This document shows positions 4,210-47,539 of a stretch of 64,000 bases of DNA, in pieces. The notes beneath the pieces are model-generated. The model was not told the origin of the DNA, did not search any database, and saw only the letters and a list, made by a program, of their open reading frames with translations. This stretch comes from a virus. The translations under genes and the position numbers were made by a program. Positions within the stretch are counted from its first letter, which is position 1. Each line of letters begins with the position of its first letter. The stretch lies in the IMG/VR virus record IMGVR_UViG_3300042868_010462, positions 64,001 to 128,000 of that record. One strand, written 5' to 3'.

Positions 4210-4309
4210 AATAAATTGTTTGTTGTTAAGTTTATTTTACTTAGTATTGTACGAATTATATACCAATTAATTAAGATAATCAATAATGTCACTTTGTAAT
4301 TAAAAATAC

Positions 4310-4322
4310 TGACATTTTGTCA
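4310..4322. promoter_or_regulatory. Palindromic TGACA-N3-TGTCA operator upstream of clpC-like gene
   Basis: tgacattttgtca; the same palindrome lies upstream of dnaK (45621-45635). Confidence 0.6.
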
Positions 4323-4375
4323 TTACAAGATTGTTGAAAATACCAAATAAAACATTATTATTAAATAAAAAAGTT

Positions 4376-6406
4376 ATGATAGAATCTAAAGATGGAGATT
4401 ACTCAAGTAAAGGTAAGGGTGACACACCAGTATTAAACAACTTTGCAAAAGATTTGGTTAAACTTGCTGAAGAGGGAAAATTAGACCCTGTTGTAGGTAG
4501 AGATAGAGAAATAACAAGAATAGCCCAAATATTATCAAGAAGAAAGAAAAATAATCCAATTATAATCGGTGAACCAGGTTGTGGAAAAACCGCTATAGTA
4601 GAAGGTTTGGCCTTGAAAATATTGAATGGAGATTGTCCAAGAAATCTAATGGATAAAAGAATTATGTCCTTAGATATGACCTCAATTGTTGCGGGCACAA
4701 AATATAGAGGACAATTTGAGGAAAGAATGAAGGTGATTATAGAAGAACTACAAGCCGCCCCAAATATCATTTTGTTTATCGATGAAATCCATCAAATTGT
4801 TGGTGCGGGTAATTCATCAGGTTCGTTGGATGCCTCAAATATATTTAAACCAGCCTTAGCAAGAGGGGAAATCCAATGTATTGGTGCGACCACTTTGGAT
4901 GAATATAGAAAGAATTTTGAAAAAGATGGTGCATTAGAAAGACGATTCCAAAAAGTAATTGTTGACCCATCAACTAAAGATGAAACATTACAAATTTTAT
5001 TAAATGTCAAAGACAAATATGAAAATTACCATAAAGTAAATTATAGTGATGATGTACTTAAACTTTGTGTTGATTTAGCTGAAAGATATATTACAGATAG
5101 AGAATTTCCAGATAAGGCATTTGACATTATTGATGAAGTCGGAGCAAGAAGTCAGGTTGAAATTAAAATGCCTCAAATTGTGGAGGATTTGAAAACACAA
5201 GCACAAGAAATAAAAAAACAAAAAATAGATGTTGTAAAAAGTCAAAACTATGAACTGGCTGCAGATTTAAGAGATAAGGAAACAAAAATATTAGATAAGT
5301 TAGAAGAGGAAAAAAAGAAATTCGAATTTGATTTATTAAACAAAAAGAAAGAAGTTAGTGTAGAACTAGTTTATGAAGTTGTATCTAATATGACTAAGAT
5401 TCCAGTCTCAAAAATGGATTCTGATGAAACTAACAAACTTTCATCTCTTGATAACAATTTGGCTTCGAAAGTTATTGGACAATCAGAAGCTGTTCTTAAA
5501 ATCGCAAAAGCAATAAGGAGAAATAGATTGGGGATTAAAGACCCTAATAAACCAATTGGTTCATTTATTTTCTTAGGCTCAACAGGTGTGGGTAAAACTT
5601 ATTTAGCTAAACAATTAGCTAAGGAAATATTTGGTAGTGAAGAAAATCTAATCCGTGTTGATATGTCAGAATTCCAAGAAAAACATTCAATATCAAGATT
5701 AATTGGTTCACCTCCAGGTTACGTTGGTTACGATGAAGGGGGACAACTTACCGAACAAGTGAAAAATAAACCATATTCAGTTATTTTATTCGATGAAATT
5801 GAGAAAGCAAATAAAGACGTGTTTGCAACGTTACTCCAAGTTTTAGACGATGGACATCTTACTGATGGTCTTGGAAGAAAAATTAATTTCAAGAATTGTA
5901 TCATTATTATGACCTCAAACCTTGGTGTCAAAAAACTACAAGATTTTGGTACTGGTGTTGGATTCAAAACAAACGCGAATGTTTACATTGAAGAGGAACA
6001 TAAAAGGGATATGTTAAAAAAGGAATTGCAGAAATTCTTTGCCCCTGAATTCCTTAATCGTATTGATGAAATTATTGTTTTTAATACATTGAAGGAAGAC
6101 GAAGTAAAACAAATTGTTAAATTAGAGGTCGATAAACTAATTAAAAGATTAGAAGGTTTGAATTATAATATTTCTTGTGATGATTCAGTTTTAGAATTAA
6201 TTTCTAAAGTTGGTTTTGATGAAACATATGGTGCCAGACCAATCAAAAGAGCAATTCAAGATAAAATTGAAGATTTTGTATCAGAAGAGGTGTTAAATGG
6301 TAAAATTATAGAAAATGAACAATACATTCTAACCGTAGATAATGAAAGTATAATTTTCAAAGAAAAGGAAACCAAAAAAACCAAAAAGAAAAAAGGGACT
6401 GAATAG
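4376..6406 (+). CDS. clpC: ClpC/ClpB-family AAA+ chaperone lacking the N-terminal Clp repeat domain
   Basis: Two Walker A motifs (GEPGCGKT, GSTGVGKT), GTKYRGQFEER, PPGYVGY, UVR-type M domain (QNYELAADLRD), YGARP; likely start MIESK at 4376. Confidence 0.9.
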   Translation: MIESKDGDYSSKGKGDTPVLNNFAKDLVKLAEEGKLDPVVGRDREITRIAQILSRRKKNNPIIIGEPGCGKTAIVEGLALKILNGDCPRNLMDKRIMSLDMTSIVAGTKYRGQFEERMKVIIEELQAAPNIILFIDEIHQIVGAGNSSGSLDASNIFKPALARGEIQCIGATTLDEYRKNFEKDGALERRFQKVIVDPSTKDETLQILLNVKDKYENYHKVNYSDDVLKLCVDLAERYITDREFPDKAFDIIDEVGARSQVEIKMPQIVEDLKTQAQEIKKQKIDVVKSQNYELAADLRDKETKILDKLEEEKKKFEFDLLNKKKEVSVELVYEVVSNMTKIPVSKMDSDETNKLSSLDNNLASKVIGQSEAVLKIAKAIRRNRLGIKDPNKPIGSFIFLGSTGVGKTYLAKQLAKEIFGSEENLIRVDMSEFQEKHSISRLIGSPPGYVGYDEGGQLTEQVKNKPYSVILFDEIEKANKDVFATLLQVLDDGHLTDGLGRKINFKNCIIIMTSNLGVKKLQDFGTGVGFKTNANVYIEEEHKRDMLKKELQKFFAPEFLNRIDEIIVFNTLKEDEVKQIVKLEVDKLIKRLEGLNYNISCDDSVLELISKVGFDETYGARPIKRAIQDKIEDFVSEEVLNGKIIENEQYILTVDNESIIFKEKETKKTKKKKGTE

Positions 6407-43655: not shown

Positions 43656-45521
43656 TTACTTTACTTCTTCAAACTCTACATCTGAACCTGTAAAACCATC
43701 AGTGTTTTCAGTTTGTTCACTCACATTACTATAAAGTTCTTGGGTAATTTTTTGCATAATTGAATTAACATTATCTAACGCAGGGTCAATTTTTTCAATT
43801 TCACCAGTGTTTTTAGCCTCTTTTAATTCCTCCAAACCTTTTTTAACTTCTTCTTTGTGTTCATCAGAGATTTTTTCATCCAAATCCTTCAAAGTTTTCT
43901 CAATATTAAAGATTGTACTATCAGCCTCATTGATTTTTTCAGCTTTTTCTTTAGCTAATTTATCACTTTCAGCATTTTCCTCAGCTTCTCTCTTCATTCT
44001 GTCGATTTCTTCTTGTGAAAGTCCAGATGATGACTCAATTCTAATCGTTTGTTGTTTGTTTGTTCCCTTGTCTAAGGCCGAAACATTGATAATACCATTT
44101 GCATCGATGTCAAAAGTAACTTCGATTTGAGGAATACCTCTCATTGATGGTGGAATACCATCTAAATGGAATCTACCAATAGTTCTGTTGTCTTTTGCCA
44201 TTGGTCTTTCACCTTGTATTACGTGAATTTCAACAGAAGGTTGATTATCTACCGCAGTTGAGAAGATTTGTGACTTTTTGGTTGGAATTGTTGTATTTGC
44301 TTCGATTAATCTTGTCATTACACCACCCATTGTCTCAATTCCTAATGAAAGTGGGGTAACATCCAATAAAAGAACATCTTTTACATCACCAGCTAATACA
44401 CCACCTTGAATCGCAGCACCCAAAGCAACAACTTCGTCAGGATTTACACCTTTTGACGCTTCTTTTCCGAAAAACTTCTTAACTGCTTCTTGAATTGCAG
44501 GGATTCTAGTAGAACCACCAACCAAAATAACCTCATCAATGTCATTAATTGTCAATCCAGCGTTTTTAAGAGCTGATTTACAAGGTGCAATCGTTCTTTC
44601 AACCAATTTATCAATAATTTGTTCAAACTTTGCTCTTGTAAGTGTTTTTACAAGGTGTTTTGGTTGATTATCAATTACCATAAAGTAAGGTAAGTTAATT
44701 TCAGTACTTTGAGATGAAGATAATTCAATTTTTGCCTTCTCAGCTGCCTCTCTTAACCTTTGGATTGCCATAGAATCATCATTCCAAGCACCATTGTTCT
44801 CATTTTTGAACTCGTTTTTTAACCAATCAGAAATAGCATTGTCAAAGTCATCACCACCTAAGTGTGTATCACCATCGGTTGATAATACTTCAAATACACC
44901 ACCACCTAATTCTAGTACAGATACATCGTGTGTACCCCCACCACAGTCAAAAACAACGATTTTAGAGTCCTTGTTTTTCTTATCAAGACCATAAGCAAGA
45001 GCAGCTGCAGTTGGTTCATTGATAATTCTCTTAACTTTCAGACCCGCAATCTCACCAGCTTCTTTTGTTGCTTGTCTTTGAGCATCATTGAAGTAAGCAG
45101 GAACTGTGATAACGGCTTCAGTTACTTCTTGACCCAAATAATCTTCAGCAGTTTGTTTCATTTTCTGTAACACCATTGCTGAGATTTCTTGAGGTGAGAA
45201 TTGTTTATCATCAATCTCTACTCTTGGGGTGTTGTTTTTCCCTTTTACGACCTTATAAGGAACTCTCTTAACCTCTGACTTGGTTTCGTCATAATTTGAG
45301 CCCATAAAGCGTTTGATTGAATAAATTGTTTTGTCAGGATTGGTTACAGCTTGTCTTTTTGCTGGGTCTCCAATCTTTCTTTCACCATTGTCAACAAATC
45401 CAATGATTGAAGGGGTTGTTCTTTTACCTTCATTGTTTGTTATTACAATTGGTTCTCCATTTTCCATTACGGCTACACACGAGTTTGTAGTCCCTAAATC
45501 GATTCCAATAATTTTACTCAT
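43656..45521 (-). CDS. dnaK: DnaK/Hsp70 chaperone
   Basis: [42 protein letters not shown]; likely start MSKII at 45521. Confidence 0.97.
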
Positions 45522-45620
45522 ATTTTGTTCGTTTTTGTTTGAATTATATTGTTTATTTTTTATGTAGTCAATTCTACTCACAAACATTTGTTATAAAAAA
45601 TTAATCCAAACCTTTTTAAC

Positions 45621-45635
45621 CTGACAAATTGTCAG
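45621..45635. promoter_or_regulatory. Palindromic CTGACA-N3-TGTCAG operator upstream of dnaK
   Basis: ctgacaaattgtcag; shared with the clpC-like upstream region. Confidence 0.6.
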
Positions 45636-45726
45636 TTTTAATGACAAAACATAATTTTTTTTATTATTTTTATAAAAAAATTGATTTTTCTAAAATCTTA
45701 TCGTATTTATTCCTAAAAGAAAAAAA

Positions 45727-45762
45727 ATGGACATCAATCTAAACAACATATACAATTTTTAA
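45727..45762 (+). CDS. Asn-rich leader peptide MDINLNNIYNF
   Basis: 11 codons, 4 of them Asn, immediately before a terminator and the AsnRS-like gene. Confidence 0.65.
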   Translation: MDINLNNIYNF

Positions 45763-45767
45763 TTCAT

Positions 45768-45797
45768 AACCCCCTTATTATTAGGGGGCTTTTTTTT
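45768..45797 (+). terminator. Intrinsic terminator in the 5' leader of the AsnRS-like gene
   Basis: CCCCCT-tattatt-AGGGGG-c-TTTTTTTT. Confidence 0.75.
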
Positions 45798-45827
45798 ATA
45801 AACCAATAAACAAAATTAATAACAAAA

Positions 45828-46661
45828 ATGAAAAACACACAAATCTACAACGAGTTAGTACAAAAGATGAGAAACTTTTTCCAAGCCAAAGGTTTCTTGG
45901 AGGTTCCAACACAATCTAGACTTTCAATCCTTGCCGCTTGTGAAAATCCACATAGCATCACAAAATTTGAATATTCAGGTGAAATTTGGCCTTTACCACA
46001 AACAGGTCAAATGTGGTTGGAATATGAATTACTTCTAAATCCTGAATTTCCTGGTGTATATTGTATCTCCACATCATACAGACAAGAAGCAAACCCAATC
46101 CCTGGTCGTCACGACTTAATCTTCCCTATGTTCGAAGTTGAAACAAAAGGAACTAAAGAAGATATGGTTAAACTTCAAGCGGAAATGTTAGAATATTTGG
46201 GATTTGATATTCCAATAGTTGTAGATTATAATGAACTTTGTGAAAAATACGGAACTGAAATCCTTGAAGCTGAACACGAAACAAAAATGTGGAATGAAAT
46301 CGGTGATTCTATCTCACTTCAAAACTTCCCATTGAGAACAAATCCTTTTTGGAATATGCAAAAGGGTGAAGGTGACAAATTCCAAAAGGTTGATGTTATC
46401 CTTTTCGGTCAAGAAACAATCGGTTCTGCTGAAAGAAGTTGTGATAAAGAAAGTATGAAAGAAATGTTCTACACAATCGAAGGTGGGAACTACTCAGCAA
46501 AACTTTTTGAATTATTTGGTAAGGAAAGAGTAGAAAAAGAATTGGAACATTTCTTATCTTTGGATTTCTTCCCAAGATTTGGATGGGGTTGTGGCCTTAC
46601 AAGATTGGCAAGAGCTTATGAATTGAATCTTACAAAAAAACTTACTGAAGCAATCATTTAA
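45828..46661 (+). CDS. Class II aaRS catalytic-core protein (AsnRS-derived, archaeal-type asparagine synthetase-like)
   Basis: GFLEVPT (motif 1), SYRQE...RH...FPMFE (motif 2), ETIGSAER, GWGCGLTRL (motif 3); no anticodon-binding domain. Confidence 0.75.
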   Translation: MKNTQIYNELVQKMRNFFQAKGFLEVPTQSRLSILAACENPHSITKFEYSGEIWPLPQTGQMWLEYELLLNPEFPGVYCISTSYRQEANPIPGRHDLIFPMFEVETKGTKEDMVKLQAEMLEYLGFDIPIVVDYNELCEKYGTEILEAEHETKMWNEIGDSISLQNFPLRTNPFWNMQKGEGDKFQKVDVILFGQETIGSAERSCDKESMKEMFYTIEGGNYSAKLFELFGKERVEKELEHFLSLDFFPRFGWGCGLTRLARAYELNLTKKLTEAII

Positions 46662-46663
46662 TT

Positions 46664-46849
46664 ATGGCGAAAAAACTAAACCCTGAACCTCAAATGACAC
46701 AAGATACCAAATCAGAAGTTGTTATAGACCACGGAGATATCATCCAAATATGGAAATATGACAAAAAATTGGGTAGAAATGCCTATGAAGTGGAAAATGT
46801 TTATAAAGGGGAAGCTAAGTTTAGTAAATTAAAAAAGGGGTCGAAATAG
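46664..46849 (+). CDS. Hypothetical protein
   Basis: 61-aa ORF ending in a terminator. Confidence 0.55.
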   Translation: MAKKLNPEPQMTQDTKSEVVIDHGDIIQIWKYDKKLGRNAYEVENVYKGEAKFSKLKKGSK

Positions 46850-46861
46850 ACCCCCTTTTTT

Positions 46862-47539
46862 TTATTCTTTTTCCTCTTTTCCTGAGTATTTAACCCCCAT
46901 TATTGTACCGATTATACTAAATGCGTTAGTTAATAATATACCTAACATATTTGACCAAGTAGAACCAATCATTTGTGTATCTTTGTTTATTACTAAAGCC
47001 AAAATATACATAAATGTGGTTATAATACCGATAGATATAATAACACCTAATGCAATTCTCACGATGTTACCAATTAATTCGGTTTGTTTTTTCTTTTGTA
47101 GAACATCCAAATCATTAACCGCTGCAGTTTTGGCTTCTTCTGCTTGGATTCTTGCTAATTCTGACTTGGCCATCTCTTGTTGAAGTTCCACACTCATTCT
47201 TTGGTTGTCTTGTTGCCAAGCAAGTAACTCTCTATTTTGAACTTCGAAAGTCATTTTTGCCTCCTCAACCTCTTTCAAAGAAACTTGGAGTTCATCCATT
47301 ATTCTTTGATTTTCAGTATTGAGTTCAATTAGTTCTTTGTTCTTTTCCTGAACTTGTTTTGTTATTTCTAACCTTTTTTTTCTTGTTTCTTTATCTTTAT
47401 CCTTACAATTCTCAACATATTTAGCAAAATCAGGGTCATCTGAAGAGTCAATAATCTTCAAAATATTACCTTCTAAACCAATATTTTTCTTTTCGAGTAA
47501 TTCTATTAACTCTTGTTTTGTTTCCTTATTAAATTTCAT
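46862..47539 (-). CDS. Coiled-coil protein with two C-terminal TM helices
   Basis: Stop/start overlap with the response regulator gene. Confidence 0.7.
   Translation of the reverse strand: MKFNKETKQELIELLEKKNIGLEGNILKIIDSSDDPDFAKYVENCKDKDKETRKKRLEITKQVQEKNKELIELNTENQRIMDELQVSLKEVEEAKMTFEVQNRELLAWQQDNQRMSVELQQEMAKSELARIQAEEAKTAAVNDLDVLQKKKQTELIGNIVRIALGVIISIGIITTFMYILALVINKDTQMIGSTWSNMLGILLTNAFSIIGTIMGVKYSGKEEKE

Follow-up and report, generated by a model that had tools for sequence, protein, structure and literature searches.

An asparagine-rich leader before a synthetase-like phage gene: a candidate attenuator for an enzyme with possible ties to pyrimidine synthesis

We analysed a 64,000-nucleotide stretch of viral DNA (hereafter the window), which covers positions 64,001 to 128,000 of IMG/VR record IMGVR_UViG_3300042868_010462, a 148-kb viral record about half complete according to CheckV. 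The DNA of the window is AT-rich, makes no use of Shine-Dalgarno sequences, and holds 19 tRNA genes, none of which is a tRNA(Asn). On its plus strand, a promoter-like box, a short reading frame rich in asparagine codons, a hairpin followed by eight T residues (T8) and an A-rich spacer lead into a gene for an aminoacyl-tRNA-synthetase-like protein, which we call gene X. The whole unit (box, asparagine-rich frame, lone terminator and X) has been retained across many related large phages with Bacteroidota-type hosts. The reading that we favour, giving the complete chain a little short of an even chance, is that the leader would permit expression of X only while tRNA(Asn) is charged, and that X would feed pyrimidine synthesis from asparagine.

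A conserved leader rich in asparagine codons

The unit adjoins the divergent gene dnaK on the upstream side of that gene, and its parts follow one another in this order:

45681-45711, plus strand: promoter-like element, with TTG at 45681-45683, a 20-nt spacer and a TATTTATT box at 45704-45711
45727-45762, plus strand: leader short frame, ATG to TAA, with 11 sense codons and asparagine codons at 45736, 45742, 45745 and 45754
45770-45797, plus strand: intrinsic terminator, with a 6-bp G+C stem (5' arm 45770-45775, 3' arm 45783-45788), a 7-nt loop (45776-45782), one C and T8 (45790-45797)
45828-46661, plus strand: gene X, encoding a 277-aa class IIb aminoacyl-tRNA-synthetase catalytic core without an anticodon-binding domain

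The TATTTATT box is 15 nt from the ATG of the short frame, whose stop codon in turn starts 10 nt 5' of the hairpin. TAYTTA-type boxes are a general promoter-like motif of this phage, found at similar distances before ordinary genes of the window, and the element at 45681-45711 presumably acts as a promoter. A terminator scan places the hairpin on the plus strand, with a folding energy of about -12 kcal/mol, and the 30 nt between T8 and the ATG of X are A-rich with no promoter box inside. An initial annotation of this DNA had described an 11-codon frame with four asparagine codons, a hairpin with T8 and a class II core lacking its anticodon domain, all of which are indeed present where it placed them.

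With four asparagine residues in 10 codons, the window leader by itself has a binomial probability of 0.003 against the 6.5% asparagine of gene starts. A single leader in AT-rich DNA is weak evidence, so it is the comparative data that decide. Homologous leaders were taken from IMG/VR phage contigs with X proteins at least 68% identical, for a total of 227 fetched records that include some contigs more than once. The layout of box, ATG, short frame, hairpin with T7-T9 and gene was present in 186 of these. With duplicates removed, they amount to 78 different leaders, which encode 55 different peptides in 28 families. In the homologous loci, the box lies 6-7 or 16-18 nt from the ATG of the short frame, the end of the T-run is 10-50 nt from the gene, and the unit is retained even in phages where the upstream neighbour gene differs. 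In 27 of the 28 families, the frame begun by the first ATG past the box meets no stop codon until it is at most 18 nt from the hairpin, compared to 10.0 expected from shuffled sequences.

We counted codons in one representative leader per family. Asparagine accounts for 64 of 298 codons (21.5%) in frame 0, compared to 19 of 281 (6.8%) and 12 of 279 (4.3%) in the other two frames, and the initial annotation's proposal to look for asparagine-rich leaders before homologues is thereby answered in its favour. Averaged over families, the leaders are 22% asparagine, against 6.2% in the proteins of the window and 6.5% over the first 14 codons of those proteins (pooled binomial 9e-18). The codon AAY is 3-5 times as frequent in frame 0 as in the other frames, and 3.4 times as frequent as at the real gene starts of the phage. 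Lysine and isoleucine are mildly raised; tyrosine, aspartate and histidine are at or below background, and we rejected the queuosine-read NAY codons as the enriched set for this reason. Asparagine is kept while the rest of the peptide changes, which indicates that selection acts on the asparagine codons of the leader.

Not every leader follows this pattern. Some families have 0-1 asparagine codons (L076, L059, L021, L045 and L078), and in L053 and L058 the hairpin follows the end of the upstream gene, with no dedicated short frame. Leader A, which belongs to a tRNA array in the same window, is not asparagine-rich. We also considered a generic promoter and stem-loop cassette of the phage, and rejected it because the only other leader-plus-terminator units of the window precede the tRNA arrays and differ in composition and design.

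Outside this group of phages, no asparagine leader was found before the cellular Bacteroidota X genes, which have ordinary promoters and neither a short frame nor a terminator. Likewise, no leader was found before the cyanophage and megaphage homologues of X, where the upstream regions differ. The leader therefore appears to be a phage addition to the gene. A second type of upstream region, from other large phages (L190, L185, L219, L192, L217 and L203; L085, L087 and L088), has no short frame, and consists of a G+C hairpin, A10 and TTTCT directly 5' of the ATG of X, sometimes with a T-run on the 5' side. An Rfam search of 45400-46000 at a relaxed threshold gave only sub-threshold chance matches, the best being Phe_leader at 21.8 bits compared to a gathering threshold of 55.

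Leader geometry and the direction of control

No antiterminator was found, either in the fold of 45715-45830, which contains the terminator hairpin only, or by eye in any of the leaders; on this point the initial annotation was correct. The leaders are nearly devoid of G residues with which the C-rich arm might pair; in contrast, true antiterminator pairing is present in leader A of the tRNA array. Since the same window thus has an antiterminator before the tRNA array, where starvation should induce, the different design before X is probably deliberate.

The asparagine codons of the window leader start 34, 28, 25 and 16 nt 5' of the hairpin base. Toeprinting and ribosome profiling show that a ribosome protects about 12-14 nt past the first base of the A-site codon, so even a stall at the last asparagine codon of the window leader would end before the stem. 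Across the families, asparagine makes up 30-40% of the codons at -36 to -13 nt, and 3 of 28 codons at -12 to -7. Counted from the other end, it accounts for 9 of 80 codons among the last four before the stop, compared to 39 of 95 for codons 5-9 before the stop. The stop codons themselves fall in the interval from -16 to +13 nt relative to the hairpin base, and often in the 5' arm, the loop or the 3' arm. Three families have a short frame that continues past the hairpin and its T-run, with an end 0-8 nt short of the X start codon or overlapping that codon, and in these cases translation must melt the hairpin.

With the asparagine codons too far from the hairpin, and the stop codon on or next to it, stalling would allow termination. 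Judging from these positions, translation to the stop codon probably leads to read-through, and a stall at asparagine probably leads to termination. The initial annotation had assumed steric control, with a ribosome stalled at asparagine occluding the hairpin; the peak of asparagine at -36 to -13 nt predicts the opposite sign.

We propose the following mechanism. The short frame would be translated from a very short 5' leader. A ribosome arriving at the stop codon would cover the 5' arm of the hairpin, so that no terminator forms and RNA polymerase reads into X. If the ribosome were instead held at the asparagine codons (16-34 nt upstream in the window), the hairpin would be free to form and transcription would stop. 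X would consequently be made only while Asn-tRNA(Asn) is well charged.

Protein X resembles the catalytic core of AsnRS

Pfam assigns residues 4-261 of X to tRNA-synt_2, the class II D/K/N core (E-value 1e-15), with no anticodon-binding domain and no match to bacterial AsnA. An AlphaFold2 model of X (predicted local distance difference test score, pLDDT, of 97) has the fold of a class IIb catalytic core. The best Foldseek matches of this model are the cores of asparaginyl-tRNA synthetase (AsnRS) and aspartyl-tRNA synthetase (AspRS), while archaeal asparagine synthetase A appears at rank 41 (E-value 1e-15). The family profile of X orders its matches similarly, with AsnRS at 3e-15, AspRS at 3e-13, AS-AR (archaeal asparagine synthetase A) at 3e-7 and EpmA at 4e-4.

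None of these similarities is strong enough to place X in a named family. Against all curated NCBIfam models, X scores 15-36 bits, where the cut-offs are 264-428. It is below the cut-offs for AsnRS (TIGR00457 and NF003037; 36 and 28 bits vs 414 and 343) and has no N-terminal oligonucleotide/oligosaccharide-binding (OB) fold. It is also below the cut-off for the elongation factor P (EF-P) lysine ligase EpmA/PoxA (TIGR00462; 18 bits vs 287), and below those for archaeal asparagine synthetase A (AS-A; NF005055/NF005053), where scores of 20-26 bits compare with cut-offs of 322-389. With the AS-A models, the X of the window scores 19.6 bits against a cut-off of 389, and cellular members of the family score 22-26 bits. 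A search of the phage record for the AS-A family gave no match, and looking up X in the ESM Atlas gave generic names only.

The motif 2 arginine, the motif 3 arginine and the acidic Mg ligands are conserved in the X family, and the residues that bind ATP and the amino acid are nearly invariant. We aligned the pocket of X with one AsnRS and two AspRS sequences from genomes. As in AsnRS, X has a glycine in the QxGQ loop, and a glutamate at the end of motif 2 where AspRS has an aspartate. At the Lys-Gln position of AspRS it has Leu-Glu, and hence does not have the AspRS lysine. From the structural literature, we take this Lys-Gln to hold the aspartate side chain, and these pocket positions to discriminate asparagine from aspartate. 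X would thus be an adenylate-forming enzyme with an AsnRS-type side-chain pocket. The AsnRS-derived core put forward in the initial annotation is borne out on this count, X being nearest to AsnRS by profile, by Foldseek and by its pocket residues.

The family is very large, with more than 8000 proteins in one search. It is found in phages, bacteria of the Candidate Phyla Radiation (CPR), DPANN archaea, Dependentiae, and Rickettsiales-like and Bdellovibrio-like organisms, as well as in scattered Chitinophagales, Weeksellaceae and other Bacteroidota (54-61% identity). Homologues are also present in giant-virus bins (GVMAG contigs L132, L135-L137, L140-L144, L146 and L150), with 50-59% identity to the X part of a fusion protein (P0125, described below). 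Viruses of eukaryotes thus carry the family too, and not phages alone.

Cellular relatives link X to pyrimidine synthesis

Among 79 cellular loci, 13, representing several phyla, have X adjacent to and in the same direction as pyrD, pyrE or pyrF. There are also two fusions, which we refer to by their protein cluster representatives. P0125 (661 aa, on 7 contigs) joins an N-terminal dihydroorotate dehydrogenase (PyrD) to X, and P0154 (588 aa) joins X to a C-terminal orotidine monophosphate (OMP) decarboxylase (PyrF). A viral scan with P0154 gave no match.

We then looked at which pyrimidine enzymes accompany X. Four of the five searched genomes with pyr-linked X lack carbamoyl-phosphate synthetase, aspartate carbamoyltransferase and both types of dihydroorotase, while all these enzymes were found in the 14 control genomes. 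Aspartate carbamoyltransferase (PyrB) exceeded its cut-off in 0 of 50 X-bearing genomes, including those of free-living organisms of 6-8 Mb, compared to 14 of 14 control genomes; PyrF was present in 32 of the 50. In the 15 larger X-bearing genomes, dihydroorotase (PyrC) never exceeded the cut-off, CarB was present in 4, and PyrD was present in 11, in many cases beside X. The sub-threshold PyrC matches adjoin a second gene of the DHO_dh type, with which they seem to form a dihydropyrimidinase pair.

The exclusion of PyrB is also seen within lineages. Among 61 Chitinophagales, X is present in three, all without PyrB, whereas PyrB is present in 51 of the 58 others, and four more have contig-end fragments of it (hypergeometric probability about 0.0006-0.003). 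In a second family, also of 61 genomes, both X-bearing genomes lack PyrB and 48 of the other 59 have it (about 0.04). Pooling both samples, PyrB is found in 0 of 5 genomes with X vs 99 of 117 without. Of 101 sampled Flavobacteriales, one bears X.

As read from these genomes, the pattern is the signature of non-orthologous replacement of PyrB and PyrC. X most likely feeds pyrimidine synthesis, supplying the substrate of PyrD without carbamoyl phosphate. Our best guess for the substrate of X is asparagine, which is chemically attractive because it holds all the atoms of dihydroorotate except C2, and it would fit the AsnRS-like pocket.

Two further features were noted around cellular X genes. In Saccharibacteria (L316:1203-2297 and 15 other loci), a gene for a flavoenzyme of the Dus (dihydrouridine synthase) family lies directly 5' of X. 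Dus and dihydroorotate dehydrogenase are related flavin mononucleotide (FMN) barrels that act on the same C5-C6 bond, and it is possible that the neighbour substitutes for PyrD; plain lineage synteny would be an equally good explanation. Upstream of several cellular X genes (L330, L333, L356, L368, L375, L325 and L327), a GC-rich TTTGCGC(C/G) motif overlaps the Bacteroidota -7 box, about 30-40 nt before the start of X. This motif may be the operator of a pyrimidine regulator.

Weighing the proposed function and its alternatives

In cells, the X family would replace aspartate carbamoyltransferase and dihydroorotase, mostly without carbamoyl-phosphate synthetase. In the phage, X would then be an auxiliary gene that pushes the PyrD/E/F pathway of the host for DNA synthesis, and the leader would keep X from draining asparagine when translation needs it, the AT-rich phage being asparagine-hungry. 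We prefer this combined model because the sign derived from leader geometry and the function derived from cellular context were obtained independently and agree.

Several points weigh against it. For the leader, the edges of the ribosome are uncertain by about 2-3 nt, and the last asparagine codon of many clusters is at -12 to -16, on the boundary itself. Three families have asparagine codons at -5 and -2, where a stall would mask the hairpin too. No RNA-polymerase pause site is evident that would allow the ribosome to catch up within the 45-80 nt leader, and leader peptides that turn a gene on at amino-acid plenty are unusual. The leader families may also share ancestry, and the enrichment statistics overstate their independence. 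For the enzyme, the group activated at an AsnRS-type site is the alpha-carboxylate, whereas ring closure to dihydroorotate requires a different group to react. X is also present in tiny CPR/DPANN genomes where no PyrD or PyrF was found (G009), with 18 of the 50 X-bearing genomes lacking PyrF, and the phages carry no pyrD or pyrF of their own. Finally, a tRNA with the anticodon GUU is found 3' of X in cyanophages and marine T4-like phages, namely in P-SSM7, P-SSM2 and P-SSM5, and in 9 of 15 marine viral loci.

The best surviving alternative, though an unlikely one, is that X is an AsnRS-derived, ammonia-dependent asparagine synthetase, with a ribosome stalled at asparagine blocking the terminator and X being induced at asparagine shortage as homeostatic feedback. 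Several observations suit this explanation: asparagine-rich leaders are conserved, X lies nearest to AsnRS, and asparagine synthetases are known among truncated AsnRS paralogues, one of which (PDB 3P8T, 'archaeal asparagine synthetase A') is among the matches of the X family profile. Its starvation-induction logic is classical, and would make sense in a phage with an asparagine-hungry proteome (6.2% of the residues in the window). Some families do have asparagine codons 2-5 nt before the hairpin; most such codons, however, are 13-36 nt upstream, which puts the stem out of reach of the stalled ribosome but within reach of one at the stop codon. Furthermore, the read-through variants of the leader show that translation opens the hairpin, and the same phage has a true antiterminator where starvation induction is needed. 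X also scores far below the AS-A cut-offs (20-26 vs 322-389 bits). An asparagine synthetase would leave three observations unexplained, namely the linkage to pyr operons, the fusions and the exclusion of PyrB, and these argue against that function. The initial annotation therefore seems right about the kind of device, an asparagine-reading leader with a lone terminator, and probably wrong about both its sign and the role of the enzyme.

It is also conceivable, but improbable, that the short frame is a coupling device only, or that its asparagine richness is a by-product, in which case any short A-rich frame would suffice and no amino acid would be sensed. The families with 0-1 asparagine codons would be expected under this explanation, as would the read-through variants without asparagine clusters, and lysine and isoleucine are also common, as A-rich RNA predicts. 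A-rich RNA would not, however, account for the frame specificity of the AAY codons (3-5 times the other frames, and 3.4 times phage gene starts) or for the confinement of asparagine to a defined zone relative to the hairpin, and leader A in the same window is not asparagine-rich.

A role for X directed at tRNA seems to us quite improbable. Here, X would act as a minimal AsnRS, charging or processing either tRNA(Asn) or a long-arm GUU tRNA, with the leader reading the Asn-tRNA pool. The motifs that bind ATP, Mg and the amino acid are all intact, the pocket is AsnRS-like, and a GUU tRNA accompanies X at the marine loci. This tRNA measures 85-96 nt; its variable arm is long, its acceptor stem has 8 bp and its D arm is Leu-like. 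It lies between 7 nt and about 1 kb downstream of X. Its presence again suggests a connection with asparagine, though through a tRNA-related role and not through pyrimidines. The tRNA occurs at the following loci:

L081:3278-3364, L082:3286-3373, L084:2765-2852, L091-L098 and L101: tRNA with anticodon GUU, 3' of X

The association does not extend to the clade of the window, where the first 80 phage loci showed no tRNA closer than 3 kb to X, or to cells, where no tRNA(Asn) was found near X in 80 loci. The complete relatives of the window phage carry only an ordinary tRNA(Asn) of 72-73 nt, in distant arrays. A full AsnRS coexists with X in genome G076, and the phyletic pattern of the pyrimidine enzymes would not be explained by a tRNA-directed role.

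Very improbable, lastly, is an untranslated short frame, with the leader acting as a small RNA of about 80-100 nt, or the hairpin insulating X, with start signals of its own, from transcription on the dnaK side: there is no Shine-Dalgarno sequence (though this phage uses none) and in two loci the hairpin merely follows the upstream gene, but just 30 nt without a promoter box separate T8 from the ATG of X, the distance from box to ATG is fixed, the frame is open in 27 of 28 families (10.0 expected) with frame-specific codon bias, and no Rfam family matches.

Comparison with known leaders and enzymes

The favoured reading, a leader permissive when tRNA(Asn) is charged, shares features with several known systems. 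The pyrE (rph-pyrE) and pyrBI attenuators of enterobacteria sense uridine triphosphate (UTP) through pausing of the polymerase at U-runs. As in the X leader, there is a single intrinsic terminator and no antiterminator, the frame ends near or runs through the hairpin, and a close ribosome gives read-through. In contrast, the leader of X is A-rich and not U-rich, and its variable element is a cluster of asparagine codons, so that the speed of the ribosome would carry the signal. It is also located in another type of host and before another gene, even though X itself apparently belongs to pyrimidine synthesis.

The trpL, hisL, pheL and thrL leaders are likewise short frames rich in the codons of one amino acid and followed by an intrinsic terminator. 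Unlike these, the leader of X has no antiterminator and no 1:2 pause hairpin, is phage-borne, and has an inverted predicted sign. The tna operon offers a parallel to this sign: its leader also turns on an amino-acid-consuming enzyme at plenty, by means of a ribosome that stays on the stop codon. TnaC acts by specific arrest, sensing free tryptophan and blocking Rho; the leader peptides of X, however, are too variable for arrest, and their terminator is intrinsic.

Among enzymes, archaeal asparagine synthetase A (AS-AR, PDB 3P8T/3REX) has the same fold as X, with a class IIb core of about 270-290 aa and no anticodon-binding domain. X differs in falling far below the cut-offs of that family, in being nearer to AsnRS, and in its context of pyrD, pyrE and pyrF with PyrB excluded. 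Our literature search found no paper on an asparagine leader, on the X protein family or on a carbamoyl-phosphate-independent route to dihydroorotate.

Neighbouring features

Two features lie downstream of X in the window:

46664-46849, plus strand: a 61-aa frame that begins 3 nt past the stop codon of X
46837-46862, between convergent genes: terminator closing the X transcription unit, with T-runs on both strands

The 61-aa frame is probably co-transcribed with X, and its end falls within the bidirectional terminator. It is found in the closest phage clade only, with 67-87% identity, and has no Pfam or NCBIfam match.

Upstream, dnaK lies on the minus strand (start at 45524), divergent from X. 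A palindrome, CTGACA-N3-TGTCAG, occurs twice in the window (4309-4323 and 45621-45635; 0.15 copies expected), in both cases just 5' of a chaperone gene, namely that of a ClpB-like AAA+ protein (4331-6406) and dnaK. It is possibly the operator of a chaperone regulon of the phage. Since it recurs before the ClpB-like gene and sits 5' of dnaK, we rejected the copy at 45621-45635 as a component of the switch before X. Elsewhere, in other phage clades, this palindrome makes up the stem in the terminator before X.

Biological implications

At its most specific, and here we are distinctly tentative, our proposal is that X is an undescribed enzyme. Starting from asparagine, it would use ATP and a one-carbon unit, for instance CO2 or bicarbonate, to form dihydroorotate or some other substrate of PyrD. 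In scattered Bacteroidota, predatory and parasitic bacteria, CPR bacteria and DPANN archaea, it would take the place of carbamoyl-phosphate synthetase, aspartate carbamoyltransferase and dihydroorotase, and it would have been borrowed by large phages, cyanophages and giant viruses for nucleotide supply. The leader would, in the same proposal, be the first asparagine-reading leader-peptide attenuator, and one that is on at plenty, for the protection of translation.

In our literature search, we found no asparagine-specific leader-peptide attenuator, no phage example of an amino-acid leader before an enzyme gene, and no amino-acid leader with this single-hairpin geometry that translation opens. 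The X family is very large and unnamed, with a phyletic pattern which says that the first committed steps of pyrimidine synthesis have been replaced. If this is true, X fills a hole in the pathway of many genomes that are scored as pyrimidine auxotrophs, and would add a new reaction to the chemistry of the aminoacyl-tRNA-synthetase fold. For the phages, X would then represent a new kind of auxiliary metabolic gene, one that bypasses the feedback-controlled entry into pyrimidine synthesis of the host while safeguarding its amino-acid pool.

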